Of a DNA stretch of 64,000 nucleotides, positions 7,006 to 64,000 are shown in pieces. The position numbers and the translations under genes are program-made. The first letter of the stretch is position 1. Each line of letters opens with the position of its first letter. The stretch is from NCBI GenBank assembly GCA_963842805.1, contig CAWJIA010000011.1:23649-87648 (forward strand), read 5' to 3'. Source of the stretch: an uncultured Chloroflexia bacterium (lineage in GTDB: Bacteria; Chloroflexota; Dehalococcoidia; GIF9; UBA5629). The notes beneath the pieces were generated by a model, which saw nothing but the letters and a program-made list of their open reading frames with translations, did not search any database and was not told the origin of the DNA.

Positions 7006-7024
7006 CGACCCGATTACAAAAAGC

Positions 7025-7504
7025 CTATTCCGTTTCTTCGTCGGTTTTAAGTAACTGGTCCTGATCTTGAAGATAGTCTATGTACAGGATCCCGTTGAGG
7101 TGATCTATTTCGTGCTCAAGTGCCTGGGCCAGCAGTTCTGTAGCCTTCTTGCGGACCAGTTTGCCATGCCTATCCCTGGCCCTAACCTTGACCGACTCCG
7201 ATCTTATTATCTCGGCCTGGTAACCTGGTATGCTCAGACAACCCTCTATTACACACCTTTCACCCTTCTTTTCAACTATTTCCGGGTTAATCAACGCTAT
7301 GACATCCTCCTCCTCAGGAGCTTTTATAACTATGATGCGCAGGGGTATCCCCACCTGGTTGGCCGCCAGACCCACACCGGGCGCAGCAGTCAGCGTTTCG
7401 ATCATGTTGTCAATAAAGCGCTGTACGGAATCGATGTCAGTGACCCGTTTGGCTTTTTTCCTGAGAACAGGATCGGGGTTGGTACGAATTCTCAATACGG
7501 CCAT
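7025..7504 (-). CDS. def: Peptide deformylase
   Basis: 159 aa; motifs GVGLAANQVG, EGCLSIPG, HEIDHLNG. Confidence 0.9.
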   Translation of the reverse strand: MAVLRIRTNPDPVLRKKAKRVTDIDSVQRFIDNMIETLTAAPGVGLAANQVGIPLRIIVIKAPEEEDVIALINPEIVEKKGERCVIEGCLSIPGYQAEIIRSESVKVRARDRHGKLVRKKATELLAQALEHEIDHLNGILYIDYLQDQDQLLKTDEETE

Positions 7505-7513
7505 GCTAAGTAA

Positions 7514-9736
7514 TTAAAGCATACCAACAGGGTCAATGTCCAAAATCCATCCCAGTGGGAAATTCACTTTTTCCAGTATATTCTGAACGTTGTCACCCAG
7601 TATGATTAGCTGTACCTGATGTTTACCTCGCAATCTTGAAACAAAGGCTGGCGCAGGACCTATTAATTTAAACCTTTCCACACCTTGTTCTTCGATAATT
7701 AACTTGATATTTGTGGCCAGCCTTCCGGCTTCCGCTCGGCACTTCTCTTCACTACTATGGCTGTAAACCAAGCGAACCATCCTGGAAAACGGGGGGTAAC
7801 CAAACTCCCGTCTATAGTTCAATTCACTCTTATAAAATCCGAGATAATCATGCAGCGCGGCATATCTGATAGCGTAATACCCTGGATTATAGGTCTGAAT
7901 AACCGCTTTTCCTGCTATTTTTCCACGACCGGCCCTGCCTGCAACCTGGCACAAAAGCTGAAATGTTCTTTCTCCCGAGCGGAAGTCCGGCAGATTCAAA
8001 CCGGTATCCGAGTTAACGATGCCTACCACAGAGACGCTGGGAAAATCCAGGCCCTTAGCCAGTATCTGGGTGCCGACTAAGATATCGATCTCACGTTTGC
8101 GAAAGCTGTTCATAGTTTTTTCATATTCCCGGGTTTTGGTCATAGTATCACTGTCAAAGCGCAGCACCCTGGCATAGGGGAATAATTTCCAGCATTCTGC
8201 TTCAACCGTTTCGGTGCCGATGCCAAAATATTTAATCTCCTTGCTGGAACAATTAGGACAGGTGTTGAGAATGGGGTAAGTGCGCCGGCAGTGATGGCAT
8301 ATCAGTCGCTTCTCCGCAGAATGGTAAGTGAGGGAGCCCGAGCACCTTTTGCAGTTTGGCACAAATCCGCAATTCATGCATTCCACGAAGGTCGACTGGC
8401 CGCGCCGGTTGATAAAAAGTATAACCTGCTCCTGCTGCTCGAGGGCCAGCCTTATCTGGGCTTTGAGCAAGCGGCTGAAGATGCCGCGGTTCCCTGCCTT
8501 GAATTCATCCCTCATATTGACAACACTAACTTCCGGCAAAGGTGTACTGCCCAATGGTGTGATACGTTCTTTTAGCTCGATAATCTCGTATTCACCATTA
8601 ACAGCCTTATAGTACGTCTCGATATCCGGCGTAGCGCTGCCCATGATCAGCGTGGAACCCGTCAGCTTGGCCAGATGTACTGCCACATCGCGGGCATGGT
8701 ATCTGGGTGTTTGGTCGGACTGCTTATAGGCCCATTCATGTTCCTCGTCCATTATGATCAATCCGAGGTCGGGCTGTGGAGAGAAGATGGCGCTACGCGG
8801 GCCGATTACTATGTCAAAATCCCCCTCTTGGATACGCCTCCATTCATCGTACTGTTCTCCCTGTGAAAGCTTGCTGTGGAATACGGCAACCCTGCCCGGA
8901 AACCTGGAAAAGAAACGATTGACGATTTGCGTGGTCAGAGAAATTTCAGGCACCAAACATATGCCTTTTTTACCGCGCTTTATCGTCTCTGCCAGCGCCC
9001 TCAAATATATCTCCGTTTTGCCACTACCAGTAACGCCGTGCAATAGAAACAGCTTCGGTTTACCGGCACCACCCTTACCATCCATGGCATTTTCTATTGG
9101 ACGCCAGGCCAGGTTCTGGTTATCGGTGAATGTGAAAGGCAGTTCCAGAGCAAGCTCGCGGCGGGCCAGCGGGTCACGGCTTACCTCTATTTCCTCCTCG
9201 ATCGCCAACCCTTTCGCCAGCAGCGTCTTTATAACGCTCCGGTCCAGATGCAATTGTCCCAGAATTTGGGGCACCGGTAATCTGCCTCCGGATTCGGAAA
9301 GCAATTCCAGTACAGCACGCTGTTTAGCTGATGCGCTTTTCCCGGCCGAACCGCTTTTTGCCCGTTCACCTTCAGGAACAAGCGCTAAATATTTTAATGA
9401 TTTCGGTTTGATAACAGTGTTTCTTTCAAAACCGGGGGGCAGAAACAGGGCAATTGAGCTCCAAAGCGGCGAGATGTAGTAGTCGGCAATCCACAGAGCG
9501 ACCCTTATACGTTCGGACGATATGATCGGGGATGAAGAGATAACCTGCTCTATATCTCTGGTATCGGGGAAAGAAGGTTTACCCGTAACCTCAATGATAA
9601 TCCCCTGCAGGAGTCTGGGACCAAAAGGCACCCGGACCCCGTAGCCAACCTCCACCTTTAGTGTATCCGGGATTGAGTAGGAGAAAGTATGTCGATGGCC
9701 GCCAGGCGCATTGACGGCCACCTCAGCATATTTCAT
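7514..9736 (-). CDS. priA: Primosomal protein N' (replication restart helicase)
   Basis: 740 aa; Walker A GVTGSGKTEIY, DEEH box, Cys-rich zinc-binding insert (CxxC...CxxC), C-terminal helicase motifs. Confidence 0.9.
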   Translation of the reverse strand: MKYAEVAVNAPGGHRHTFSYSIPDTLKVEVGYGVRVPFGPRLLQGIIIEVTGKPSFPDTRDIEQVISSSPIISSERIRVALWIADYYISPLWSSIALFLPPGFERNTVIKPKSLKYLALVPEGERAKSGSAGKSASAKQRAVLELLSESGGRLPVPQILGQLHLDRSVIKTLLAKGLAIEEEIEVSRDPLARRELALELPFTFTDNQNLAWRPIENAMDGKGGAGKPKLFLLHGVTGSGKTEIYLRALAETIKRGKKGICLVPEISLTTQIVNRFFSRFPGRVAVFHSKLSQGEQYDEWRRIQEGDFDIVIGPRSAIFSPQPDLGLIIMDEEHEWAYKQSDQTPRYHARDVAVHLAKLTGSTLIMGSATPDIETYYKAVNGEYEIIELKERITPLGSTPLPEVSVVNMRDEFKAGNRGIFSRLLKAQIRLALEQQEQVILFINRRGQSTFVECMNCGFVPNCKRCSGSLTYHSAEKRLICHHCRRTYPILNTCPNCSSKEIKYFGIGTETVEAECWKLFPYARVLRFDSDTMTKTREYEKTMNSFRKREIDILVGTQILAKGLDFPSVSVVGIVNSDTGLNLPDFRSGERTFQLLCQVAGRAGRGKIAGKAVIQTYNPGYYAIRYAALHDYLGFYKSELNYRREFGYPPFSRMVRLVYSHSSEEKCRAEAGRLATNIKLIIEEQGVERFKLIGPAPAFVSRLRGKHQVQLIILGDNVQNILEKVNFPLGWILDIDPVGML

Positions 9737-32756: not shown

Positions 32757-34118
32757 TTAACCTAAAGCGTCCGCCTTCTCGACATTTATGATTTTAATCT
32801 TCTGCTGGTCGGCGAATTGCTGGGCCTCTTTGGCCAGACCCGGCGAAGCCAGCAGTATCTTATCGTGGATTCCGATATCATAGGCCTTGGTATCATAGGC
32901 GGATACGGCTTCCAGACCGACCCCCTTGGGGTCCGCCAGGATGCCGATGGATATGGTATGCGTGAACAGGCCGTCGTCGTAATACGCGATGATATCCATG
33001 GTATATTCAGCGCCCGAGCGGCCGCGTATCCTGGCTTTTTCCTCCGTCCTGTAGCCCTGTTCGTGCAGGTATTTCAACAACTGTTTGCGGCTTTCAAATT
33101 TGAACGGCTTTTTATTCACGTTGCCCGGCAAGTTATCACCTGCACCCTTTAAGAATGTCTCCAGTTCGTCGGCATTGAACGATTTGATGCGCTGCCTCTG
33201 GGCAAATTGCCTGGCCTCGCTGTTTAGCCCGGGCATGGCCAGCAGGATCTTATCATGTATACCCAGGTCATAGGCCTTGTTATCGAACCTGAATACGTCT
33301 TCGAGGCCGATATTTTCCGAGTTGTGCCCGATGGCTATGCCGATGCCCAGGATAAAGGTCAGGAAGCCGTCGTCACGCTCGGCCAGCATATCCAGCACAT
33401 GCGTGACGCCCGAACCGGACCCGCTGCTCGCCCTGGCCTTTTCAAATACCTTATAGCCCTGCTGTTCCAGGTAGGTGATAAACTTGGACTTGAAGCCCAT
33501 ATCGAATGTAAGCCAGTTCCTGCTCTGCTCGTTTAAAATGTAGGAGTTAATGGTCTGGACTTTAGCTTCTTCATCGGAGAAGAAGATGGAGCACTTAAGG
33601 CACTGCCACTTCATGGTGATCTCGGTGGACAGGCCGCCGCAACTCTGGCACTTATAATTCACTCCCAAGCTGCGGTAATCAGTCCCCAGGAATTTAAGCG
33701 GCTTCTTACAATGCGGGCAAACATATTTCCCGCCGGCGATAAACTCCTGTTCCAACCCGTTCTTTCCGCAGGCGAAGTGCTCCAGTATCCTCCCCTTGGC
33801 AACATTGCCCGACCCGCATTTAGGGCACCTCAAGCTGGGCCTCAAATTCATGGAATTACATACGGGGCAGAAGATCAGGCGCTCATAGAAGCGCCCTTCC
33901 AGCATGCGCTCTTGCACCAGGCTGTCCAGTATTTTTATAACCTCTTCCGAGGTCTTGCCCAGCGTCGCTTCAACCTGGGGATACACCGCGCCGGACTGCC
34001 TGGTGAAGTCGATAACCGGACGTATCTCCTCAATACGGCCTTCGATCATATCGTTGATAAGCTGCAGCACCTTGGGATCATGGGTTGCCGTTTGAGAAGA
34101 TTCTAATATCTCAATCAT
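32757..34118 (-). CDS. Uncharacterised lead gene of pilus operon: three CxxC zinc-ribbon pairs and a tandem-duplicated ~95-aa C-terminal domain
   Basis: 453 aa; CPVCNS...CPKCGS, CPHCKK...CQSCGG, CLKCS; repeats GYKVFEKARASSGSGSGVTHVLDMLAERDDGFLTFILGIGIA...DKILLAMPGLNSEARQFAQRQRIK and GYRTEEKARIRGRSGAEYTMDIIAYYDDGLFTHTISIGIL...DKILLASPGLAKEAQQFADQQKIK. Confidence 0.5.
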   Translation of the reverse strand: MIEILESSQTATHDPKVLQLINDMIEGRIEEIRPVIDFTRQSGAVYPQVEATLGKTSEEVIKILDSLVQERMLEGRFYERLIFCPVCNSMNLRPSLRCPKCGSGNVAKGRILEHFACGKNGLEQEFIAGGKYVCPHCKKPLKFLGTDYRSLGVNYKCQSCGGLSTEITMKWQCLKCSIFFSDEEAKVQTINSYILNEQSRNWLTFDMGFKSKFITYLEQQGYKVFEKARASSGSGSGVTHVLDMLAERDDGFLTFILGIGIAIGHNSENIGLEDVFRFDNKAYDLGIHDKILLAMPGLNSEARQFAQRQRIKSFNADELETFLKGAGDNLPGNVNKKPFKFESRKQLLKYLHEQGYRTEEKARIRGRSGAEYTMDIIAYYDDGLFTHTISIGILADPKGVGLEAVSAYDTKAYDIGIHDKILLASPGLAKEAQQFADQQKIKIINVEKADALG

Positions 34119-34421: not shown

Positions 34422-37400
34422 ATGGTTATGCTTCTTTTACTGGTCCTGAGCATTTTAGATATATGTTCGTTCTGCCCGGCCGCCCATGCCGACAATACCA
34501 GTGGCAGGACGCTGACCTGGTCGGTGGTCAAGACACCGATTAACAATGGCCCCGACAACGTAATCTGCAGCCCTGGCGAGATCAACTCCATGGCCCTGGG
34601 CAACGGCGTGATCTATTGCGCCGATACGGCCAACAGCAGGCTGTTCCGCTCCGTGAACGGAGGATACAGCTTCACCGATATAAGCAGCGATCTTGCTGCC
34701 GCCGGGGCGAATTTACCGGTCTGGTCGGTGGCCGTAGCCCCGGATGATCCGAAATTTGTAGTGGTTGTCACCTTCACTACACTACCGTTGCCACCCAATC
34801 CAGGGCCTCAGCAGGTCTATGTATCCATCGATGGGGGAAACAACTGGCAAAATACGGGCCCTACAATTAACGGGGCAGGACCAGCTACAGACAAGATTGG
34901 AACAGACGAATATATAAGCTGCATAGACATATCCAGGTCATATGGCGCGTATCGCGATATCGCCATCGGCACACGCACCACTACAGCGACTACAGGAACC
35001 GGACAGGTATTAAATCTTAAGTACGGCTCTGCCGGTACGGGATGGTCTTCGCAGCCAGTCTTAACTGCAGCCATAACATCCCTTAAATTCTCCCCCAACT
35101 ACGGGTCGGATTCGACGCTGGCAGTTATCACGTGCAATCCTACTTCACCATTCCTCAACCTGGGGCAGCATGATACAACCACCAACTCCACGATCTGGAA
35201 TACACCGTATGGCGCTTACCCTATCCCGCTCGCCCCTGCGGCTTCAGGTGTGGTTCCAGGTGTGGTGATAGGAACCGACCTATCACTGCCGTCCGATTTC
35301 AACGCACAGAACCCCGCCCTGATGGGCTGTTTCGCCAGCATCCAATCCGACACAGCGTTCCAAGATTTTATGGGCAGGACCACTCAGACGGGTGTCTTTT
35401 ATATAAATACCTCTATCGGCGCCACGCCATTCACTATAACCCCCCCGCCGGTGGTCCCCCCGGGACTCCCACCGGGACGCCGCATTTACTCGATTGCCTA
35501 CAACGGCAGTGAGGCCAGTGGCATCCTGCTGGCTGGCGAGGCCACGGCCGACCCGGCTACCGCCATGGTCCCCGTCTATCAAAGCTCCAATGCCCAGTCG
35601 TTCAGCCCGGGTGCCGCCACCTGGACCAGCTCGCAGGACTATAACGATTATAAGTCGCCCACGGGCGGCGGGAATTCGGGCCGCGCCAACGCCATACTGG
35701 GCTGGGGCTATAACGGCGTTCCCTATTGCGCTACCAGCTCTGAAAACGACATTACAGGTGGAACAGCATGGGCAGTGGGTCAATGGCCTTTTTCAAAATC
35801 GCTTGGAGTCCCTCTTGATGAATCCGCCTTTTCATATAGCTCCAACGGCGGGCTGAGCTGGAACCAGATCGGCCTGATAGATACCAGCATCGATCAACTG
35901 TCCGATTCGGCCGCCCTTGAAGCTCCGCCCGATGCCACCCAGAGCAGCGTGCTCTACCTGTCTTCCCTTAATAAAAAGGGCGCGCCCAATAGCTTCGACA
36001 GCGTGTGGCGCTCTACCAGCGATACGCTGGGGGATCAATGGGAACGCATCCTGACCCGCACGACCAGTGACAGCGGAACGATCTTGCGTGTGAACGATAA
36101 GACGCCCGGTTCCACTGCCCTGATCCTGGGGGACCTGACCACGCCCAATATCATGTATACAGCAGATGAGGGCCAGAAATGGGAAACGGTATTTGCCGGA
36201 ATATCGTCCCTGCGCGATATCGCATTTAGGGATGAATCGACCATCTACGTACTTGAGGATTACCGGGTAAGGCAACTATCCATGGGAGACACCAACTGGG
36301 TGCCGGGGCAATTCGTCAACACGGATTTGCTGATACCCGCACATACCATATGTACCCCGCTGGTCAACCCTACCAGCGCAGATCTAGTCTTCGTAGGCTC
36401 AGGCATCTACACACTGGGAAACCCCGAGGCCTATGTAGCCTGGACCGATTTTTCTCAACCTTCGCCTAAATTCACCGCACTTAAAATGCTGCCGCAGAGC
36501 GGCAACGTGCATGTTATCGCGGACAGCAAGTACGACCAGAACAATATGATCTATGCGGCGGTAAACACTGATTTTAAGCCCAGCAGCGAGGGGGTTATTT
36601 ACAGGTGGACTGTAGGCACAAGCACTGACTGGGATGAACTGGAGCCGCTCAACCGCGCCTTTTTTGGGATCGCCATGGCCGGCGATGTGCTTTATGGCTC
36701 CTGGAACTTTGACACCACCACGCTACAGAACAGCGGGGGCGTGGACCGTACGCTCTCTCCCAGGGTCAAAGTGCCCCCGGCGCCCGATTGGGATGAGCTG
36801 AAAGACGGCCTCCCCATACCGCCCGCTATTAATTATCCCGTCGTCTTCACCCGCGAACCCACATCGCTCAAAATCTCCTCCAATACCAATAATACGCTGT
36901 GGTCAATCGATAACAGTGCAAATCCTTACAACTACGATAATAAGATAGGCTGCCTCTGGCAATTCATCGATTCGGTAGCCAGGGTAAGCCCCTGGCCCAC
37001 TGCGCCGCCCTCCGGCAGCTTCATCGGGGTGGATCCGGTGACGGGCAGGTCTCAACAGATTGATATTAAGTGGCGGCAACTGAAAGATGTCTTCGGTTAC
37101 GACCTGCTGATAGCCAAAGATGTGAATTTTACGACGCTTCTATCGGAGAACGCCACGAAGATTTTCAATATGGTCACGGTTGATAGCAAGACGGGTGCGT
37201 GGGTCATAGGGTGGGACAAGATGACGGGTAAGTGGATAGCGACGCTCGACCAATCACAGCAGTTGTCGCCGGGCGTATGGATACCCCCCGGTATATTGGA
37301 AGCCGGCCAGCCATACTACTGGAAAGTGAGGGGCAGCCGCAGCATAACTGGCGCCGCCATTCACAGCCTGTGGTCGCCGGTCATGTTTTTCTCGGTCAAA

Positions 37401-37835
37401 CCGGGTTTCGCTGTGAGGAGCAGCGTAAGCGGTCCCCAGCTCCTGGCACCCATCGACGGCGTCTGCCGGGACTGCCAGCCTACCGTCGGCTTTAGCTGGA
37501 CACCCGTTAAAAATGCCAAAAAATATGAATTCACCCTGGCTTATGATCAGGACCTCAAAAACGTAATTGTTCAGACTGTTACGACCACGACTGCATATAA
37601 ATATGAGGACCGGCTCGAGCCGGGCAGAATTTATTTCTGGCAGGTGAAAGCTGTGGCGCCGTTTGAAAGCGATCCCAGCCCTACAGGCACTTTCGTCATA
37701 GCCGGCAGCCGGCCCGTAATGCCCCTGGAGTCCCTGCCCCCGTCCTACCTGTGGATAGCTGTAATCATAGCCACGACCGTCATACTGGTTTTGATCATCG
37801 TCATATTCTTTTACAATTATATGCGCAGGTATTAA
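34422..37835 (+). CDS. BNR/Asp-box repeat cell-surface protein with signal peptide and C-terminal TM anchor (S-layer-like)
   Basis: 1137 aa; signal peptide MVMLLLLVLSILDICSFCPAAHA; Asp-box motifs SVNGGYSF, SIDGGNNW, SSNGGLSW, TADEGQKW; C-terminal LWIAVIIATTVILVLIIVIFFY + RRY. Confidence 0.7.
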   Translation: MVMLLLLVLSILDICSFCPAAHADNTSGRTLTWSVVKTPINNGPDNVICSPGEINSMALGNGVIYCADTANSRLFRSVNGGYSFTDISSDLAAAGANLPVWSVAVAPDDPKFVVVVTFTTLPLPPNPGPQQVYVSIDGGNNWQNTGPTINGAGPATDKIGTDEYISCIDISRSYGAYRDIAIGTRTTTATTGTGQVLNLKYGSAGTGWSSQPVLTAAITSLKFSPNYGSDSTLAVITCNPTSPFLNLGQHDTTTNSTIWNTPYGAYPIPLAPAASGVVPGVVIGTDLSLPSDFNAQNPALMGCFASIQSDTAFQDFMGRTTQTGVFYINTSIGATPFTITPPPVVPPGLPPGRRIYSIAYNGSEASGILLAGEATADPATAMVPVYQSSNAQSFSPGAATWTSSQDYNDYKSPTGGGNSGRANAILGWGYNGVPYCATSSENDITGGTAWAVGQWPFSKSLGVPLDESAFSYSSNGGLSWNQIGLIDTSIDQLSDSAALEAPPDATQSSVLYLSSLNKKGAPNSFDSVWRSTSDTLGDQWERILTRTTSDSGTILRVNDKTPGSTALILGDLTTPNIMYTADEGQKWETVFAGISSLRDIAFRDESTIYVLEDYRVRQLSMGDTNWVPGQFVNTDLLIPAHTICTPLVNPTSADLVFVGSGIYTLGNPEAYVAWTDFSQPSPKFTALKMLPQSGNVHVIADSKYDQNNMIYAAVNTDFKPSSEGVIYRWTVGTSTDWDELEPLNRAFFGIAMAGDVLYGSWNFDTTTLQNSGGVDRTLSPRVKVPPAPDWDELKDGLPIPPAINYPVVFTREPTSLKISSNTNNTLWSIDNSANPYNYDNKIGCLWQFIDSVARVSPWPTAPPSGSFIGVDPVTGRSQQIDIKWRQLKDVFGYDLLIAKDVNFTTLLSENATKIFNMVTVDSKTGAWVIGWDKMTGKWIATLDQSQQLSPGVWIPPGILEAGQPYYWKVRGSRSITGAAIHSLWSPVMFFSVKPGFAVRSSVSGPQLLAPIDGVCRDCQPTVGFSWTPVKNAKKYEFTLAYDQDLKNVIVQTVTTTTAYKYEDRLEPGRIYFWQVKAVAPFESDPSPTGTFVIAGSRPVMPLESLPPSYLWIAVIIATTVILVLIIVIFFYNYMRRY

Positions 37836-52810: not shown

Positions 52811-54004
52811 GTGATCGAACGCAAACGGGCTCCGATGCTGACCAGGCAGAATATTCTAAACGCTGCTTCCAGAGGAATGGCCCAGAATGGATACGAGGGT
52901 TCTAAGTTGAACGAAATTGCGCAAGAAGCAGGCGCGACAGAACCAACTATTTATCTGCATTTTAAAGGAAAGGAGAGTCTGTTGTTCTCTGTTGCTGAGG
53001 AACATATGGCTAGATACCTCCTTTTCCTTAACGAACACGAACAGGGGATCATCGGCGCTCATGACAAATTACGTAAACTTGTCTGGGCCCACCTGCGATA
53101 CAGCGATATAGACACAGAATTTATGCGTCTAGTTCTGTTTGACTGTAGAAACAACCGGAATTTTTATGAATCTGATGCCTACAAGCTGGTTCGTAAGTAT
53201 TCTGGAATTCTATCGTCCATTCTCGACGAAGGTATCAGGGAGAAAGTTTTCAGGTCGGACATGAACGTACCGCTGGTTCGGGACATTATTTTTGGCCTCA
53301 TGGATTACGAGGCGATCCAATATTTTGTAAGCAAAGAAAAGCCTAATGCTGTTTTGGACCTGGAAGATATTATGCAACTTCTCGATCAAATGCTTTTGCG
53401 CAAATACCAAATGGAAGATCAGCCTGCGGATAAAAGACAACGTATTCTTCAAGCAGCAGTCCAAGCTTTTGCCGAGAACGGATATGCCAAGGCGACCATT
53501 GCGGAGATCGCCCACGAGGCTGGTGTGGCGGACGGAACAGTTTATGAGTATTTCAAAAATAAGGAAGATGTTCTAGTCTATATTGCGGAAGAACGTTTCG
53601 CAGGACACCTAGAACAACTTAAACAGACTTTCAGCGGTAACACCCCTAGAAAGCTGTGGCTTTTAATGCTGAACCATTTTCAGCAGTATCTGGATGATCC
53701 GAATTTTGCCGTAGTCTTCTTAACCATGATTCAGTTTAACCGCCGTTTTTATCAATCACGCGCGTACATAAGCCAGCACAACTACGTGATCGAACTTGAA
53801 AAACTGATACAGGAAATCATCAATGAGGGAAGTCTGCAGAATATTAATATCAGGGTTTTTGGAAATATGTTTTTAGGAGCATTTAGCCATATGGCACTCC
53901 GGTGGTTTCTGGTAGATCGTGATCGAAATTTTGACAAGATGGCAGAAATCAAGGAGGTTGCTATACTTTTTTCAGATGCATTATCTCCCAAATTTAATTT
54001 ATAG
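52811..54004 (+). CDS. Tandem double TetR-family transcriptional regulator (two complete TetR HTH + ligand-binding modules in one polypeptide)
   Basis: 397 aa; two TetR_N HTH segments: ILNAASRGMAQNGYEGSKLNEIAQEAGATEPTIYLHFKGKESLL and ILQAAVQAFAENGYAKATIAEIAHEAGVADGTVYEYFKNKEDVL; GTG start. Confidence 0.8.
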   Translation: MIERKRAPMLTRQNILNAASRGMAQNGYEGSKLNEIAQEAGATEPTIYLHFKGKESLLFSVAEEHMARYLLFLNEHEQGIIGAHDKLRKLVWAHLRYSDIDTEFMRLVLFDCRNNRNFYESDAYKLVRKYSGILSSILDEGIREKVFRSDMNVPLVRDIIFGLMDYEAIQYFVSKEKPNAVLDLEDIMQLLDQMLLRKYQMEDQPADKRQRILQAAVQAFAENGYAKATIAEIAHEAGVADGTVYEYFKNKEDVLVYIAEERFAGHLEQLKQTFSGNTPRKLWLLMLNHFQQYLDDPNFAVVFLTMIQFNRRFYQSRAYISQHNYVIELEKLIQEIINEGSLQNINIRVFGNMFLGAFSHMALRWFLVDRDRNFDKMAEIKEVAILFSDALSPKFNL

Positions 54005-56482: not shown

Positions 56483-57406
56483 ATGAGTTTTAACAACTCT
56501 GACAACAATAGCAAAGGGTTGGTATTCAACATCCAGAAGTATTCTCTTGATGACGGCCCTGGAATCAGAACGACGGTCTTTATGAAGGGATGTTCCCTGG
56601 CCTGCAAGTGGTGCAGTAATCCGGAATCAATAAATCGGAATCAAGAGACCATGACCCGTAACCTGAGATGTATCGCATGCGGAAAATGTGCGGCGGCCTG
56701 TCCAATTGTGGCGATCGCCTTTACAGACGGACACAGGGAAATAAACTGGGAGAGGTGCAACAACTGCCTTGAATGTGCCAGGGTATGCCCGGCAAAGGCT
56801 ATTGAATCTATCGGGCATTACATGACCGTGGAAGAAGTAATGAAAAAGGTAGAAGCTGACCGGACATTCTATGAAAATTCAAACGGCGGAATGACAATAT
56901 CGGGCGGTGAACCACTTGTTCAGCCGAAATTTGTCAGAGACCTGTTTAAAAATTGTCGGGAAAAAGGAATCCATACCACCTTAGACACCACCAGCAACGC
57001 ACCGTGGCAGGACATAGAGAACGTCCTCGAGTATGTTGACCTTGTTCTTCAGGATATCAAGCACATGGACACAGGGATGCATAAGAAAGGCACAGGTGTC
57101 GGGAATAAGCTTATACTTGAAAATGCCAAAAAAATCGCTATGCGGAAGAGGATATGGATTAGGATACCGCTTATCCCGGGGTTCAATGATTCGGAAGTAA
57201 ACATAAAAAAGACTGCTGAATTGGGATTAGATATAGGTGTGGAAAAAGTATCGCTGCTGCCATACCACGAGCTGGGGGCATCCAAATATCCGGCGCTAGG
57301 CCGGGTCTATCCGATGCAGGGAACCAAGCCTCCTGAGAAGAAAGTTATAGAAAAGATCAGAAAGACAATGGAATCATATGGGTTGAAGGTTGAAATCGGG
57401 AGGTAA
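56483..57406 (+). CDS. Glycyl-radical-enzyme activating enzyme (radical SAM, with ferredoxin-like insert)
   Basis: 307 aa; GIRTTVFMKGCSLACKWCSNPE radical-SAM CxxxCxxC, additional CIACGKCAAACP and CNNCLECARVCP clusters, GGEPL motif. Confidence 0.9.
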   Translation: MSFNNSDNNSKGLVFNIQKYSLDDGPGIRTTVFMKGCSLACKWCSNPESINRNQETMTRNLRCIACGKCAAACPIVAIAFTDGHREINWERCNNCLECARVCPAKAIESIGHYMTVEEVMKKVEADRTFYENSNGGMTISGGEPLVQPKFVRDLFKNCREKGIHTTLDTTSNAPWQDIENVLEYVDLVLQDIKHMDTGMHKKGTGVGNKLILENAKKIAMRKRIWIRIPLIPGFNDSEVNIKKTAELGLDIGVEKVSLLPYHELGASKYPALGRVYPMQGTKPPEKKVIEKIRKTMESYGLKVEIGR

Positions 57407-57440
57407 AAAATTTTCAAGAATTCTTACGGAGGGACAAAAA

Positions 57441-59888
57441 ATGAGTAGAGTAATGACTGAAAAAAGCACCGGGACACCGTGGCCGGAGCTTAGTGACGAT
57501 CTCCGCATGCTCAGACAGAATGTCTCGATCAAGGTGTCCAGGAATGTTCGGCAGGGGTATGAGAAAGATGAGCACAAACGGGGTATGTACAGAACAAGCA
57601 TCAAGCTGAATGTTGTAAGGAATCGCCTTTTGACCGAATCATACAAGGCTACGGAAGGCGAACCAATGGTCCTGCGGCGGGCAAAGGCCCTGGCCCACAT
57701 CCTGAGAAATCTGCCTGTTTATACTGTGCCCCACGAGCGCATTGTCGGCCATTCAGGAGCAACCCCGGATGAGCTTTATTATCCCATAGAGGTGAACTGG
57801 GAATCTGCCTGGCGGGCCATGAACTCCGATGACGCTCGCGAGATCCTGGATGATGAGGGACGCGCCGAGATGGAGAAGATTGTTGAATACTGGAAAGGCA
57901 AGACCCTGAGTGACCTGCGCAAGAATGCCTTTAAGGGAGACCTGGAAAAATACTTCAAGTTTGAAGGAACATTCCTCTGGTCCCACTGGGACGAAGGGGC
58001 CGTACCGAATTATGAAAGGCTGTTCAAAATTGGCCTGAAAGGTCTCAGAAAAGAGGCAGAGGAAAGGCTTCAGGAAGTGATTGACACCATTCCTGATAAT
58101 TACCTTGAACAGCATGATTTTTTGCAGGGCGTTTTGATCACTCTGGATGCAGCAGTGGATTTTGCCCGAAGATATGCGGAAAGAGCAAGAGAGGACGCTG
58201 CCAAGGAGAATGATCCAAAAAGGAAGAAGGAGCTTGAGCAGATCGCCAGAATTTGTGACCGGGTGCCTGAAAATCCGGCACAAACCCTGCACGAGGCCCT
58301 TCAGTTCTTCTGGTTTATTACCCTGATTAAGGGGCAACTTGAATTTGCAAACCTTACCCTCGGTAGCAGGTTTGATATTCTATTTAACCCTTATTACCAG
58401 AAAGATCTAGCTGAACGGAGGATTACCAGAAAGGAGGCTGTTGAGCTGATACAGCACCTGTTCGTACATTTCGAGGAGTCGGGGGAGTGGTTTTCTCCCA
58501 TGATCACCGGTATCTATGGAGGTGTCCAGCAGCTTGAGGGAATCACCCTGGGCGGTATTGACGAAAACGGACATGATGTCACCAATGATATGACATATAT
58601 ATGCCTTGAAGCAGCTAAGGGCCTCCGTCAGCTTCAGCCGACCATCGCCCTGAGGGTGCACAAAAACACTCCCAAGGAACTTCTTGCAGCAGCCACGGAC
58701 GTCATAAGAACCGGAGTCGGGTATCCCTCCCTGTTTAATGACGAGGCACTGATTCCTCTCATAAATAAATGGGGTACCCCCCTGAAGGACGCCAGAAATT
58801 ATAACGTGTTCGGCTGTGTGTACCTTGATATTCCCGGGAAAAACAATAATGCAAGGCGTGCATCAGGCTATTTTGTACTTCCGAAATGTCTGTGGTGGGC
58901 TCTGCACCGGGGCGTTAATCCAAAGACAGGCGAGCAATACGGTGCACGGACGCCTGACCCTGAAACCTTCACCGGCATCCAGGATGTTATTGAAACGTAT
59001 CTCGATCAGGTCAGATTCTTCTTCGGCAAGATGGTAAAGCTGGAGAACACCTCCCGAGGACTCTACCGGGAATATGCGCCCAGGCCTTTCCTGTCAGCCT
59101 TCCTGGACGGCTGCATAGAGCGTGGGCAGGATGCAAAGGAGTGGGCCGATACTACTTCCTCTATTAACGCCTTTAACATCATCATCGGTCCGACCAATGT
59201 GGCCGATTCCCTGGCTGCGATAAAGAAGCTGGTTTTTGATGACAAGGAATTGACCATGCGGGAGTTCATCGACATCCTGGATAAAAACTGGGAAGGTCAT
59301 GAAGATCTTCGCCAGAGGGTCATAAACCAGGTCCCCAAATTTGGCAATGATGACGACTATGTTGATCTTCTTGCCAAGGAGGTTCACGAACGTTCAGAAG
59401 CTATCTATCAGGAGTTTACCGATGAGCACGGTGCTAAATGGAGAGGTGACGGAAGCGGCGTATCTGCGACATATGGCCTTGGACCCGGAACACCGGCCAC
59501 ACCCGATGGTAGAAAAGACGGCGAGCCTTTTTCCGATGCTACCCTGTCGCCAATGCTTGGCCGGGATATAAACGGCCCCACTGCCGTTCTGGCATCATGC
59601 GCCAAAATCAAACCCCTTAATCAGCTTCTGAATCAGAAGTTCCTTCCCCAGTTTCTGGATGACGAGCATAAGGAACAGTTTATCAGCTACCTCAGGTCCT
59701 GGTGCGATATGGGAGTCCCTCATATCCAGTTTAATGTCGTGGACAATGCAACCTTGAGGGATGCCCAGAAACATCCCCAAAAGTACACCAACCTGATTGT
59801 AAGAGTTGCAGGTTACAGCACCTATTTCGTGGATCTCAGCAAAGGCCTGCAGAACCATATTATTGCAAGGGCAGAACAGCAGTTTTAG
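57441..59888 (+). CDS. Glycyl radical enzyme, paralog 2
   Basis: start at ATG 57441 (MSRVMTEKS, RBS ggaggga) by analogy with paralog 3; Cys loop FGCVYLDIPGKNNN; C-terminal RVAGYSTYFVDL. Confidence 0.85.
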   Translation: MSRVMTEKSTGTPWPELSDDLRMLRQNVSIKVSRNVRQGYEKDEHKRGMYRTSIKLNVVRNRLLTESYKATEGEPMVLRRAKALAHILRNLPVYTVPHERIVGHSGATPDELYYPIEVNWESAWRAMNSDDAREILDDEGRAEMEKIVEYWKGKTLSDLRKNAFKGDLEKYFKFEGTFLWSHWDEGAVPNYERLFKIGLKGLRKEAEERLQEVIDTIPDNYLEQHDFLQGVLITLDAAVDFARRYAERAREDAAKENDPKRKKELEQIARICDRVPENPAQTLHEALQFFWFITLIKGQLEFANLTLGSRFDILFNPYYQKDLAERRITRKEAVELIQHLFVHFEESGEWFSPMITGIYGGVQQLEGITLGGIDENGHDVTNDMTYICLEAAKGLRQLQPTIALRVHKNTPKELLAAATDVIRTGVGYPSLFNDEALIPLINKWGTPLKDARNYNVFGCVYLDIPGKNNNARRASGYFVLPKCLWWALHRGVNPKTGEQYGARTPDPETFTGIQDVIETYLDQVRFFFGKMVKLENTSRGLYREYAPRPFLSAFLDGCIERGQDAKEWADTTSSINAFNIIIGPTNVADSLAAIKKLVFDDKELTMREFIDILDKNWEGHEDLRQRVINQVPKFGNDDDYVDLLAKEVHERSEAIYQEFTDEHGAKWRGDGSGVSATYGLGPGTPATPDGRKDGEPFSDATLSPMLGRDINGPTAVLASCAKIKPLNQLLNQKFLPQFLDDEHKEQFISYLRSWCDMGVPHIQFNVVDNATLRDAQKHPQKYTNLIVRVAGYSTYFVDLSKGLQNHIIARAEQQF

Positions 59889-59919
59889 CGCATAAATAAA
59901 AGATGAAGCGAGGACGAAA

Positions 59920-62361
59920 ATGAGTAGAGTAATGACTGAAAAAAGCACCGGGACACCGTGGCCGGAGCTTAGTGACGATCTCCGCATGCTCAGACAGAAT
60001 GTCTCGATCAAGGTGTCCAGGAATGTTCGGCAGGGATACCAGAAAGATGAGCACAAACGGGGCATGTACCGGTCAAGCATCAAACTGAATGTGGAAAGGA
60101 ATCGCCTTTTGACCGAATCATACAAGGCTACGGAAAGCGAACCAATGGTCCTGCGGCGGGCAAAGGCCCTGGCGCATATCCTAAGGAATATGAGTATATT
60201 CATTGTCCCGAACTCCCGTATTGTTGGCCACTCCGGGTCAACACCAAACGATCTTTATTATCCCATAGAGGTGAACTGGAAATCTGCCTGGCGGGCCATG
60301 AATTCGGATGACGCTCGCGAGATCCTGGATGATGAGGGACGCGCCGAGATGGAGAAAATTGTTGAATACTGGAAAGGCAAGACCCTGAGTGACCTGCGCA
60401 AAAATGCCTTCAAGGGAGACCTGGAAAAATACTTCACATATGAAGGAACATTCCTCTGGTCCCACTGGGACGAACTGGGAATTCCCAACTATGAAAAACT
60501 GTTGACAAAAGGGATCAACGGAATAAAGAAGGAAGCTGAAGAAAAACTAAAGAAGGTAATAGCATCGATTCCCGATGACTACCTTGAGCAGTGTGAATTT
60601 TTAGAAGCTGTTATCATCAGCTTGGAGGCAACAATCGATTTTGCCCGAAGGTATGCTAAAAAGGCAAAGGAGATTGCCAAAAGTGAAAAAAATGGGGCAT
60701 GGAAAAGGCAGCTTGAGCAGATTGCGGAAGTCTGCCGCCGAGTACCTGCTGAGCCAGCAACTACTTACTACGAAGCTCTGCAGTCCTTTTGGTTTATCAA
60801 CCTGATCACCAGACAGATCGAGCTTGTGAGCCTCGGATGCGGCGCCAGGTTTGATGCCCTCTTTGGTCCGTACTATCAGAATGATCTTGCCGAGGGCAGA
60901 ATTACCAGGGAAGAGGCGCTTGAGCTAATGGAGCATCTTTTGTTGAAGTTTGAGGAGTCGGGGATGTGGTATTCACCACTGGTCACCGGTATTTATGGCG
61001 GTGTCCAGCAGCTCCAAGGAATCACCCTGGGCGGTATTGACGAAAACGGACATGATGTCACCAATGACATAACATATATAACCCTTGAGGCTGCCAGAAA
61101 GCTTTACATCCTTCAACCGACCATCGCCCTGAGGGTGCACAAAAACACTCCCAAGGAACTTCTTGCAGCAGCCACGGACGTCATAAGAACCGGAGTCGGG
61201 TATCCCTCCCTGTTTAATGACGAGGCACTGATTCCTCTCCTGCATGAATGGAAGGTTGCTGAAAAGGACATCTATAATTACTCCGTCAGCGGATGCGTTT
61301 ATCTTGACGTCCCCGGTAAAAACCTGGTTCGCAGGGCATCAGGCTATTTTGTACTTCCGAAATGTCTGTGGTGGGCTCTGCACCGGGGCGTTAATCCAAA
61401 GACAGGCGAGCAATACGGTGCACGGACGCCTGACCCTGAAACCTTCACCGGCATCCAGGATGTTATTGAAGCGTATCTCGATCAGGTCAGATTCTTCTTC
61501 GGCAAGATGGTAAAGCTGGAGAACACCTCCAGAGGACTCTACCGGGAATATGCGCCCAGGCCTTTCCTGTCAGCCTTCCTGGACGGCTGCATAGAGCGTG
61601 GGCAGGATACAAGAAGATGGGCCTATCCCTCAAACATGAACTCCTTTAACATCATCATCGGTCCGACCAATGTGGCCGATTCCCTGGCTGCGATAAAGAA
61701 GCTGGTTTTTGATGACAAGGAATTGACCATGCGGGAGTTCATCGACATCCTGGATAAAAACTGGGAAGGTCATGAAGATCTTCGCCAGAGGGTCATAAAC
61801 CAGGTCCCCAAATTTGGCAATGATGACGACTATGTTGATCTTCTTGCCAAGGAGGTTCACGAACGTTCAGAAGCTATCTATCAGGAGTTTACCGATGAGC
61901 ACGGTGCTAAATGGAGAGGTGACGGAAGCGGCGTATCTGCGACATATGGCCTTGGACCCGGAACACCGGCCACACCCGATGGTAGAAAAGACGGCGAGCC
62001 TTTTTCCGATGCTACCCTGTCGCCAATGCTTGGCCGGGATATAAACGGCCCCACTGCCGTTCTGGCATCATGCGCCAAAATCAAACCCCTTAATCAGCTT
62101 CTGAATCAGAAGTTCCTTCCCCAGTTTCTGGATGACGAGCATAAGGAACAGTTTATCAGCTACCTCAGGTCCTGGTGCGATATGGGAGTCCCTCATATCC
62201 AGTTTAATGTCGTGGACAATGCAACCTTGAGGGATGCCCAGAAACATCCCCAAAAGTACACCAACCTGATTGTAAGAGTTGCAGGTTACAGCACCTATTT
62301 CGTGGATCTCAGCAAAGGCCTGCAGAACCATATTATTGCAAGGGCAGAACAGCAGTTTTAG
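59920..62361 (+). CDS. Glycyl radical enzyme, paralog 3 (mosaic; C-terminal ~350 aa almost identical to paralog 2)
   Basis: 813 aa; identical first 40 aa and last ~330 aa to paralog 2, divergent central region and Cys-loop cassette SGCVYLDVPGKNLVR. Confidence 0.85.
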   Translation: MSRVMTEKSTGTPWPELSDDLRMLRQNVSIKVSRNVRQGYQKDEHKRGMYRSSIKLNVERNRLLTESYKATESEPMVLRRAKALAHILRNMSIFIVPNSRIVGHSGSTPNDLYYPIEVNWKSAWRAMNSDDAREILDDEGRAEMEKIVEYWKGKTLSDLRKNAFKGDLEKYFTYEGTFLWSHWDELGIPNYEKLLTKGINGIKKEAEEKLKKVIASIPDDYLEQCEFLEAVIISLEATIDFARRYAKKAKEIAKSEKNGAWKRQLEQIAEVCRRVPAEPATTYYEALQSFWFINLITRQIELVSLGCGARFDALFGPYYQNDLAEGRITREEALELMEHLLLKFEESGMWYSPLVTGIYGGVQQLQGITLGGIDENGHDVTNDITYITLEAARKLYILQPTIALRVHKNTPKELLAAATDVIRTGVGYPSLFNDEALIPLLHEWKVAEKDIYNYSVSGCVYLDVPGKNLVRRASGYFVLPKCLWWALHRGVNPKTGEQYGARTPDPETFTGIQDVIEAYLDQVRFFFGKMVKLENTSRGLYREYAPRPFLSAFLDGCIERGQDTRRWAYPSNMNSFNIIIGPTNVADSLAAIKKLVFDDKELTMREFIDILDKNWEGHEDLRQRVINQVPKFGNDDDYVDLLAKEVHERSEAIYQEFTDEHGAKWRGDGSGVSATYGLGPGTPATPDGRKDGEPFSDATLSPMLGRDINGPTAVLASCAKIKPLNQLLNQKFLPQFLDDEHKEQFISYLRSWCDMGVPHIQFNVVDNATLRDAQKHPQKYTNLIVRVAGYSTYFVDLSKGLQNHIIARAEQQF

Positions 62362-62392
62362 CGCATAAATAAAAGATGAAGCGAGGACGAAA

Positions 62393-64000
62393 ATGAGTAG
62401 AGTAATGACTGAAAAAAGCACCGGGACACCGTGGCCGGAGCTTAGTGACGATCTCCGCATGCTCAGACAGAATGTCTCGATCAAGGTGTCCAGGAATGTT
62501 CGGCAGGGGTATGAGAAAGATGAGCACAAACGGGGTATGTACAGAACAAGCATCAAGCTGAATGTTGTAAGGAATCGCCTTTTGACCGAATCATACAAGG
62601 CTACGGAAGGCGAACCAATGGTCCTGCGGCGGGCAAAGGCCCTGGCCCACATCCTGAGAAATCTGCCTGTTTATATTACGCCCCACGAGCGCATTGTCGG
62701 CCATTCAGGAGCAACCCCGGACGATCTTTTCTACCCCATAGAGGTGAACTGGAAATCTGCCTGGCGGGCCATGAACTCCGATGACGCTCGCGAGATCCTG
62801 GATGATGAGGGACGCGCCGAGATGGAGAAGATTGTTGAATACTGGAAAGGCAAGACCCTGAGTGACCTGCACAAGAATGCCTTTAAGGGAGACCTGGAAA
62901 AATACTTCAAGTTTGAAGGAACATTCCTCTGGTCTCTGTTTGACTCAGGGTCCATCCCTAATTATGAAAGGCTGTTCAAAATTGGCCTGAAAGGTCTCAG
63001 AAAAGAGGCAGAGGAAAGGCTTCAGGAAGTGATTGACACCATTCCTGATAATTACCTTGAACAGCATGATTTTTTGCAGGGCGTTTTGATCACTCTGGAT
63101 GCAGCAGTGGATTTTGCCCGAAGATATGCGGAAAGAGCAAGAGAGGACGCTGCCAAGGAGAATGATCCAAAAAGGAAGAAGGAGCTTGAGCAGATCGCCA
63201 GAATTTGTGACCGGGTGCCTGAAAATCCGGCACAAACCCTGCACGAGGCCCTTCAGTTCTTCTGGTTTATTACCCTGATTAAGGGGCAGATGGAGTTCGC
63301 CAACCTCGGAGGCGGCGGACGGTTTGACCTTCTCTTTTATCCGCTCTATAAGAAGGAGCTTTCCAAAGGAAAGATCACCAGACGGGAAGCCATTGAACTG
63401 TTGCAGCACCTGTTCGTACATTTCGAGGAGTCGGGGGAGTGGTTTTCTCCCATGATCACCGGTATCTATGGAGGTGTCCAGCAGCTTGAGGGAATCACCC
63501 TGGGCGGTATTGACGAAAACGGACATGATGTCACCAATGATATGACATATATATGCCTTGAAGCAGCTAAGGGCCTCCGTCAGCTTCAGCCGACCATCGC
63601 CCTGAGGGTGCACAAAAACACTCCCAAGGAACTTCTTGCAGCAGCCACGGACGTCATAAGAACCGGAGTCGGGTATCCCTCCCTGTTTAATGACGAGGCA
63701 CTGATTCCTCTCATAAATAAATGGGGTACCCCCCTGAAGGACGCCAGAAATTATCATGTACCCGGTTGTGTGTACCTTGATATTCCCGGGAAAAACAATA
63801 ATGCAAGGCGTGCATCAGGCTATTTTGTACTTCCGAAATGTCTGTGGTGGGCTCTGCACCGGGGCGTTAATCCAAAGACAGGCGAGCAATACGGTGCACG
63901 GACGCCTGACCCTGAAACCTTCACCGGCATCCAGGATGTTATTGAAGCGTATCTCGATCAGGTCAGATTCTTCTTCGGCAAGATGGTAAAGCTGGAGAAC
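62393..64000 (+). CDS. Glycyl radical enzyme, paralog 4 (5' partial, runs off window end; mosaic of paralog 2 with a distinct cassette)
   Basis: open frame from ATG 62393 to window end; nearly identical to paralog 2 except LHKNAFK, WSLFDSGSIP, and the segment MEFANLGGGGRFDLLFYPLYKKELSKGKITRREAIELLQ; Cys loop PGCVYLDIPGKNNN. Confidence 0.8.
   Translation, partial: MSRVMTEKSTGTPWPELSDDLRMLRQNVSIKVSRNVRQGYEKDEHKRGMYRTSIKLNVVRNRLLTESYKATEGEPMVLRRAKALAHILRNLPVYITPHERIVGHSGATPDDLFYPIEVNWKSAWRAMNSDDAREILDDEGRAEMEKIVEYWKGKTLSDLHKNAFKGDLEKYFKFEGTFLWSLFDSGSIPNYERLFKIGLKGLRKEAEERLQEVIDTIPDNYLEQHDFLQGVLITLDAAVDFARRYAERAREDAAKENDPKRKKELEQIARICDRVPENPAQTLHEALQFFWFITLIKGQMEFANLGGGGRFDLLFYPLYKKELSKGKITRREAIELLQHLFVHFEESGEWFSPMITGIYGGVQQLEGITLGGIDENGHDVTNDMTYICLEAAKGLRQLQPTIALRVHKNTPKELLAAATDVIRTGVGYPSLFNDEALIPLINKWGTPLKDARNYHVPGCVYLDIPGKNNNARRASGYFVLPKCLWWALHRGVNPKTGEQYGARTPDPETFTGIQDVIEAYLDQVRFFFGKMVKLEN

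Follow-up and report, generated by a model that had tools for sequence, protein, structure and literature searches.

Why should neighbouring genes be identical over most of their length and still differ sharply in a few short stretches near the catalytic residue? This question is raised by the end of a 64,000-nucleotide (nt) stretch of DNA from an uncultured Chloroflexia bacterium (contig CAWJIA010000011.1, positions 23,649 to 87,648), referred to here as the window, where four genes for glycyl radical enzymes (GREs), named paralogues 1 to 4 (P1 to P4), stand around one activating-enzyme gene. GREs have narrowly tailored active sites, and whole clades of these enzymes have no known function (PMC13450708). 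In this study, P2, P3 and P4 were found to be mosaics of exact repeats and short divergent patches, and the same mosaic recurred in other genomes. Very likely this reflects concerted evolution by gene conversion between old tandem paralogues, from which patches at the active site escape.

Mosaic structure of the three paralogues

The three genes lie on the forward strand. P2 occupies 57441-59888 (Cys459 at 58815-58817, Gly791 at 59811-59813) and P3 occupies 59920-62361 (Cys459 at 61294-61296, Gly789 at 62284-62286); P4 starts at 62393 and breaks off at residue 535, where the window ends (64000; Cys459 at 63767-63769). P2 carries patches of type B, P3 of type A and P4 of type C, on a scaffold common to all three. 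Block boundaries were drawn from a nucleotide alignment of the copies, in which exact blocks alternate with sharply bounded patches of 51-69% identity. P2 and P3 differ at 342 of 2513 alignment columns, and nearly all of these mismatches are clustered. Two clusters, at 57557-57616 and 57657-57827, retain 83% and 81% nt identity. A long block at 57923-58538 (P3 60402-61017; 69%) separates type A from types B and C, with P2 equal to P4 throughout it apart from patches 1 and 2, described below. Three short patches follow: a helix patch at residues 383-399 (58589-58637, P3 61068-61116; 59%), the Cys-loop patch, or patch 3, at residues 441-473 (58761-58859, P3 61240-61335; 55%), and patch 4 at residues 565-577 (59133-59169, P3 61609-61642; 51%). 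Patch 4, also called the DAKEW patch, spans 37 nt and reads DAKEWADTTSSINAF in P2 and DTRRWA-YPSNMNSF in P3.

Between these patches the copies are the same. The first 40 residues of P2 and P3 are identical, and at the nucleotide level the block 57438-57556 equals both 59917-60035 and 62390-62508, so that it is present in all three copies. The shared N-terminus, the divergent block in mid-gene and the sharp patches, including one flanking the catalytic Cys, had all been reported in a preliminary description of this DNA, and the alignment bore them out. That description had also placed near-identity in the last ~1 kb of P2 and P3. Over 58860-59919 and 61336-62392 the two are indeed identical save for two single mismatches and the 37-nt patch, but the tract does not stop at the end of the gene. 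The longest exact direct repeat, of 866 nt, lies at 59170-60035 and 61643-62508; its first copy takes in the C-terminus of P2, the stop codon, a 31-nt spacer and the N-terminus of P3, and its second copy the same parts of P3 and P4. Gene limits therefore do not delimit the homogenised unit, since the repeat passes the stop codon and the spacer and takes in the following gene's first 116 nt, start codon included. Two antisense open reading frames (ORFs) of about 200 residues (59595-60203 and 62068-62652, both on the reverse strand) are duplicated through the repeated block; nothing points to their being real genes.

P2 and P4 differ at 95 of 1642 columns. The unrelated 31-nt upstream spacer accounts for 22 of these mismatches, and 62 of the remaining 73 fall within three patches. 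Patch 1 (residues 181-189, 57983-58007) reads SHWDEGAV in type B, SLFDSGSI in type C and SHWDELGI in type A. Patch 2 (residues 299-337, 58337-58451), which covers a barrel strand and the helices after it, reads NLTLGSRFD, NLGGGGRFD and SLGCGARFD in the same order. The third difference is a 12-nt segment inside the Cys loop (58803-58814), the four codons that directly precede the codon of the catalytic Cys (58815-58817) and encode NVFG in P2 and HVPG in P4. P4 had been described as P2 with one swapped segment; the swap is present, but there are three main patches and not one.

In a GENECONV-like permutation test over the 1181 sites polymorphic across 17 copies, P2 and P3 agreed at 294 consecutive sites. 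The mean maximum run in shuffled data was 19.6 and the overall maximum 44, and the observed run was reached in 0 of 5000 shuffles. The observed runs of 294, 410 and 387 sites stand against shuffled maxima of 44, 42 and 88 (0/5000 shuffles), and chance is excluded as their source. P1 (54042-56459, forward strand), with about 56% identity to P2-P4, stands outside the homogenisation: its longest exact match with their region is 17 nt, and it was ruled out as a conversion partner on this ground.

Patch types and their age

When the proteins are aligned, each of the window's variable patches fits one of three signatures that recur across assemblies. Type A, represented by P3, is marked by HWDELG, SLGCGARFD, SVSGC, GK-NLVRR and RRWA-YPSN; type B, represented by P2, by HWDEGA, TLTLGSRFD, NV[FM]GC and EWA[DE]TTSS; and type C, represented by P4, by LFDSGS, NLGGGGRFD and HVPGC. 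Some of the genomes also have a fourth signature (TCGG).

Linkage of the three core patches was examined in 83 distinct proteins from the clade. Their usual combinations are AAA, BBB, CCC or BD(B or D); recombinants form a minority, namely AAB in P0022, P0029 and L010_a, BCC in L002_c and BCB in P0042, and some of these combinations could be assembly chimeras. The peripheral patches (patch 4 and a C-terminal insertion of three residues) have been exchanged more often than the core patches. On one related contig (Ga0194126_10000794; loci L008/L032), a single type-A GRE (6438-8831) follows the activase, with about 9 kb beyond it holding no other GRE; its patch 4 is B-like (DAKEWAYSTSAIN), a hint that a conversion partner existed in the past or at a distance. 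Cassette exchange, as had been suggested, does occur, but it is the exception: natural recombinants, such as A-type patches with a B-type Cys loop, are few.

These data bear on the age of the patches. Had the genes been duplicated in tandem recently and then diverged rapidly in place, with young patches under positive selection, identical scaffolds that carry strongly different patch residues would be accounted for. The synonymous divergence (dS) between paralogues in the core patches is nevertheless about 1 or more, or undefined through saturation, while the patches are 92-98% identical to those of the same type in other genomes. Among orthologues the ratio of non-synonymous to synonymous divergence (dN/dS) in the core patches is about 0.1 (0.08-0.11), and the types are shared across very different metagenome bins. 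Recent duplication is therefore very unlikely: the patch types are old and under purifying selection. Because the variants are old and conserved, the process preserves diversity rather than creating it. The suggestion that the array is a way of generating active-site diversity did not hold, given three to four patch types that recur across distant genomes under purifying selection and the lack of dedicated machinery among the genes scanned (see below).

Concerted evolution of the scaffolds

Segment-wise nucleotide identity was compared over six arrays. In the scaffold segments (residues 474-535 and 579-815), copies of different types within a genome are 0.93-0.97 identical, as against 0.85-0.88 for copies of the same type in different genomes. 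In the patches this relation is reversed, with 0.51-0.76 between types within a genome and 0.79-0.91 between genomes within a type. Scaffold dS tells the same story: it is 0.000 between paralogues of the window and 0.17-0.43 between paralogues of close relatives, compared with 0.45-0.60 between orthologues. P2 and P3 are identical in all 237 codons for residues 579-815, but between P2 and its orthologue L023_b 25 codons differ synonymously and 13 non-synonymously; constraint at the nucleotide level therefore fails to explain the identity of P2 and P3.

The direction of conversion could also be read. The ancestral type-A C-terminus has a three-residue insertion (KGY/KAY) before NQLLNQ and the motifs DGSAVS and YGLSxxTPATP, all of which it has in common with P1. 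It is kept in L016_a (L016 10001-12403), L003_a (L003 304-2700) and L004_a (L004 10001-12400), and in the window and its close relatives it has been replaced by B/C sequence; the loss of a signature that P1 shares gives the direction. P3 is a type-A gene whose N-terminus and C-terminal half were overwritten by B/C sequence. The scaffold of P2 is nearest to type-C orthologues and its patches are of type B; P2 is a type-B gene whose scaffold was overwritten from the type-C copy.

The patches themselves might instead have been imported from other strains or species by recombination, as the occurrence of the operon in bins labelled as different phyla and the proteins with mixed patch types could suggest. 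For each patch of the window, the best match is the same type in L023, L025 or L026 (0.92-0.98). Its divergence from L023 is about that of the flanking single-copy genes (0.905-0.933), as vertical descent predicts, and the taxon labels of short binned contigs are unreliable. Import is accordingly an improbable origin for them. The proposal of the preliminary description that conversion homogenises the scaffolds, while selection keeps the patches near the active site different, is supported by the reversal of identity, the scaffold dS of zero, the recurrence of the mosaic and its mapping by homology.

The operon in other assemblies

Related loci were collected from a scan of species-representative genomes, contig look-ups (three close homologues and the P1-type protein P0088) and one metagenome scan. 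Complete or near-complete arrays were found in L002, L016, L023/L024/L027, L025, L026, L028 and L107, with the architecture of a TetR regulator gene, P1, the activase gene and three GRE genes. The nearest relative, L023, is 90.5-93.3% identical to the window in TetR, P1 and activase. An AMP-dependent ligase gene comes next after the array in all five loci examined downstream (L002, L016, L023, L025, L026); that of L023 scores as FadD-like in NCBIfam.

The peaks and troughs of identity between paralogues fall at the same positions in L002, L016, L023, L025 and L026 and differ in degree. The longest exact runs between copies are ~1 kb in L002, 914 nt in L025 and at most 257 nt in L016, L023, L026 and L028. 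In L028, with the copy order A, B-like, B-like, the copies also share long exact repeats. Profiles with the same positions and varying degree in five arrays fit repeated, independent conversion events.

Could the mosaic be an artefact of assembly, the tandem copies being in truth less alike or fewer, and a short-read assembler having collapsed or threaded the repeats? The exact repeats of up to 866 nt exceed short reads, many related contigs end within the array, and the order B-A-C is found in the window only. Related loci usually have A-B-C (A-C-B' in L016), and both window spacers are of the b-to-c kind found in L023; the window order is either a real rearrangement or the result of threading through exact repeats. 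An independent copy of the strain was also sought, and neither an exact look-up of the P3 protein (no record) nor a search of metagenome contigs for an exact 42-nt spacer pattern yielded one. Against this, at least eight independent metagenome assemblies hold three-copy arrays that comprise types A, B and C and have their patches at the same positions. Each copy in the window has a canonical, fully linked set of patches that agrees in type with its orthologues and that random threading would scramble, and the graded scaffold identity of close relatives (85-100%, with the differences intact) fits real conversion of varied age. An artefact is thus an unlikely explanation for the whole pattern; it could be the source of the literal 100% identity and of the gene order, and not of the mosaic itself.

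Contigs that end inside a GRE copy include L001, L003, L006, L007, L009, L010, L011, L029, L030 and L031. Since breaks within the array are what repeats are expected to cause, the numbers of paralogues in metagenome bins are probably underestimates.

Position of the patches in the enzyme

The patches were mapped through HMMER alignments to solved GREs and published contact residues (PMC13450708, PMC6453916, PMC12583861). Patch 1 falls in the loop after beta-1, which forms part of the substrate channel in BSS according to these sources, and it aligns with GDH His164 and with IseG Arg187, Ile190 and Gln191. In the strand of patch 2, GDH Ser282 and IseG Thr310 align at P2 residues 304-305, beside the variable residues TL.S, GG.G and GC.A. 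Patch 3 corresponds to the Cys loop, as far as the invariant Arg472-Arg473, and patch 4 is the loop entering the strand at 578-582 (FNIII), aligned with BSS Trp613, Asn615 and Ile617. An AlphaFold2 model (pLDDT 85.3, pTM 0.89) placed the patches on the expected barrel loops and short strands, and its fold matched PD, GDH, BSS, HypD and CutC with TM values of 0.86-0.89. By homology, the patches appear to lie on segments that contact the substrate in solved GREs.

The enzymes and their possible chemistry

All four array proteins belong to the GRE superfamily (PFL-like) by their barrel, glycyl radical domain, loop motifs and neighbouring activase. The PFL-like barrel was found in each (PF02901, E 1e-164 to 1e-169 for P1-P3, and also in the truncated P4), and the glycyl radical domain in P1-P3 (PF01228, E 1e-28); that of P4 lies past the window end. 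In P1, the catalytic Cys and the radical Gly are Cys447 and Gly779. The glycyl loop RVAGYST with Gly791 and the motif GCVY with Cys459 are accompanied by full conservation of both residues in 59 homologues, and Cys459 aligns with GDH C433 and PD C438. The glycyl loops of all four enzymes read RVAGYS[TA], which, given what is known of activase specificity, is compatible with one activase serving all of them. That activase is the only one in the operon (56483-57406, forward strand; Pfam Radical_SAM and Fer4), scores 354 bits with TIGR02494 (cutoff 174), and falls below the BssD cutoff of NCBIfam.

The best sequence matches of the array GREs are PD (5I2A/5I2G) and GDH (1R8W), with E values of 1e-134 and 1e-131, and B12-independent diol and glycerol dehydratases are also the best fold matches (TM 0.86-0.90, 33-34% identity). 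The array enzymes share with the dehydratases the PFL-like barrel, the aligned Cys of the Cys loop, the RVAGYS loop and an adjacent radical-SAM activase. GRE 1,2-eliminases and isomerases (GDH, PD, CutC, HypD, IslA, HplG, YbiW) are defined by the C-x-E motif of their Cys loop, in which the Glu forms a hydrogen bond to the hydroxyl of the substrate (PMC13450708). In contrast, the array enzymes have C459-V460-Y461 (58815-58823), with the Tyr invariant in the 59 homologues. The positions aligned with GDH H164, S282 and D447 are not conserved, and four enzymes share one activase, unlike in the dehydratases. NCBIfam gave no equivalog assignment for the array GREs, with best scores of 529-547 bits against cutoffs of at least 1000 and 557 against 678 for the subfamily model TIGR01774. 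Arg472-Arg473 (58854-58859; 13-14 residues after the Cys) and Trp485-Trp486 are invariant in the clade, and together with the C-x-Y motif they suggest a chemistry unlike that of the best-matching dehydratases.

X-succinate synthases were the other candidate. The fold match to BSS (4PKF) is equally good (TM 0.89), but sequence similarity to BSS and MASS is lower (E 1e-104 to 1e-117), and the genes for small beta and gamma subunits that accompany these synthases are absent between P1 and P4. As with the X-succinate synthases, a downstream ligase could activate an acid product as its CoA thioester. Arg472/Arg473 may stand at a distance from the catalytic Cys similar to that of the fumarate-binding Arg508 of BSS. 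The published limonene GRE is a true X-succinate synthase and does not belong to the array family. The invariant Tyr in place of Glu, the equivalog scores below cutoff and the lack of small subunits indicate an uncharacterised GRE clade. The Arg pair, the FadR-like regulator and the FadD-like ligase that lies downstream in related arrays suggest a carboxylate as substrate or product.

Genomic neighbourhood

The regulator encoded at 52811-54004 (forward strand) consists of two complete TetR units fused together, with two TetR_N domains and TetR_C_4 in Pfam and with C-terminal domains resembling YsiA/FadR. The double form was kept upstream of every array examined, including those of L002, L016, L023, L025, L026, L028 and L107. 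Downstream of it, the genes from P1 to P4 are separated by spacers of 23-34 nt with no small ORFs between them. The longest ORF of P2 opens with a TTG at 57390, where the activase gene has not yet ended. Translation probably starts at the ATG at 57441, which is conserved, is preceded by GGAGGG and aligns with the starts of P3, P4 and the orthologues. The genomic context of a stand-alone homologue (P0082) gave no information on the substrate.

The rest of the window is core chromosome, with leuS, priA, trmD, mraW, ftsA/ftsZ, nrdR and a class II ribonucleotide reductase, type IV pilus genes, NAD synthase and rpoD. Two further ORFs were noted there. One (34422-37835, forward strand, 1137 residues), flanked by pilus/secretion genes and a methyltransferase gene, matched nothing in Pfam at E <= 1e-5. 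The other (32757-34118, reverse strand), a neighbour of the type IV pilus ATPase genes, encodes both a TackOD1 output domain and a restriction endonuclease domain of the Mrr type.

A locus with cassette-like patches in otherwise identical genes, and with a few natural recombinants, superficially resembles one under programmed diversification, in which a diversity-generating retroelement (DGR), a shufflon or invertase, or an expression site with silent cassettes would swap the active-site cassettes. The mismatches involve all four bases and are not adenine-specific, and no inverted repeats flank the patches, the only pairs being weak, scattered ones of 15-22 nt that are due to the repeats themselves. 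Every GRE copy is a complete gene preceded by a ribosome-binding site of its own, and the repertoire comprises only three to four conserved types. No reverse transcriptase, recombinase, invertase or transposase was found by Pfam among the 38 window ORFs scanned (at least 150 residues), and the neighbourhood is core chromosome. Programmed swapping is thus the least credible of the explanations considered. The likeness to pilE/pilS, vlsE and DGRs ends at short variable cassettes within identical sequence, whereas the array has neither silent donor copies nor adenine bias, and each of its variants is under purifying selection.

Discussion

The account favoured here is as follows. P2, P3 and P4 are three old paralogues, of types B, A and C respectively, that follow a single activase gene in tandem. 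Repeated non-reciprocal homologous recombination, probably ordinary RecA-type gene conversion between tandem direct repeats, has overwritten their scaffolds, including the whole C-terminal half with the glycyl radical domain, the spacers and the N-termini, which have thereby become identical in this genome; the tracts end at the patches of ~50% identity. The short patches escape and stay orthologous to the same type in other genomes. Their persistence may have two sources: hybrid active sites would be selected against, so that selection for three co-adapted active sites keeps the patches, and ~50% identity would give a conversion tract no homology to cross. The isoenzymes may act on related but different substrates, probably carboxylates or compounds that yield carboxylates, as the Arg472-Arg473 pair, the FadD-like ligase and the FadR-like TetR would suggest. 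A homogenised glycyl radical domain may help one activase to serve all copies.

Several points weigh against this account. That the three types differ in specificity is something we infer, and patches and active site are linked through secondary structure and through alignment with homologues of solved structure. Patch 4 and the helices of patch 2 may belong to the second shell. Nor is every pocket segment protected: the one at Ser672, aligned with GDH Tyr640 and IseG Arg676, has been homogenised in the window. The order B-A-C is unique to the window, type A standing directly after the activase in 15 of 15 related loci (14 distinct contigs), and exact repeats of 119-866 nt could let assemblers collapse near-identical copies to 100% identity or misorder the variable cores.

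A more elaborate view is that the array is a system of modular specificity. Conversion would then be selected to match the glycyl radical domains and interfaces to one activase, the patches would be occasionally swapped cassettes that create new substrate ranges (AAB, BCC, BCB), and the clade with C-x-Y and Arg-Arg would catalyse a reaction type not yet described. We regard this as possible, though not likely. Concerted evolution that spares the active-site patches remains the reading we favour.

Concerted evolution of bacterial paralogues by gene conversion is known from tufA/tufB, from rRNA operons and from the homogenised ketosynthase regions of modular polyketide synthases. As in these systems, the array has paralogues that are closer to each other than to their orthologues, mosaic tracts, and functionally distinct segments that were spared. 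In contrast to them, the spared segments are very short (12-115 nt), lie on active-site elements of a radical enzyme, and recur at the same positions in many lineages. A full-text literature search returned no paper linking glycyl radical enzymes with gene conversion or concerted evolution, and a search on GRE, Syntrophaceae and paralogs returned nothing relevant.

In sum, the mosaic is real and general; the preliminary description was right about conversion and selection and overstated their creative role. Gene conversion limited by selection is a well-known process and not new. What is new is its clean and recurrent imprint on an uncharacterised GRE array, pointing to candidate determinants of specificity. 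Such arrays break or scramble short-read assemblies, and care is needed with counts of paralogues and with 'chimeric' GREs in metagenomes. One activase apparently serves four enzymes. Within each gene pair, only ~60-200 nt were left different and the rest was wiped identical, which makes the array a natural comparison of candidate specificity residues, at positions 181-189, 300-337, 455-458 with 468-471, and 565-577. These positions may serve as targets for patch-swap work and for substrate guesses in a clade without the catalytic Glu found in its closest relatives.

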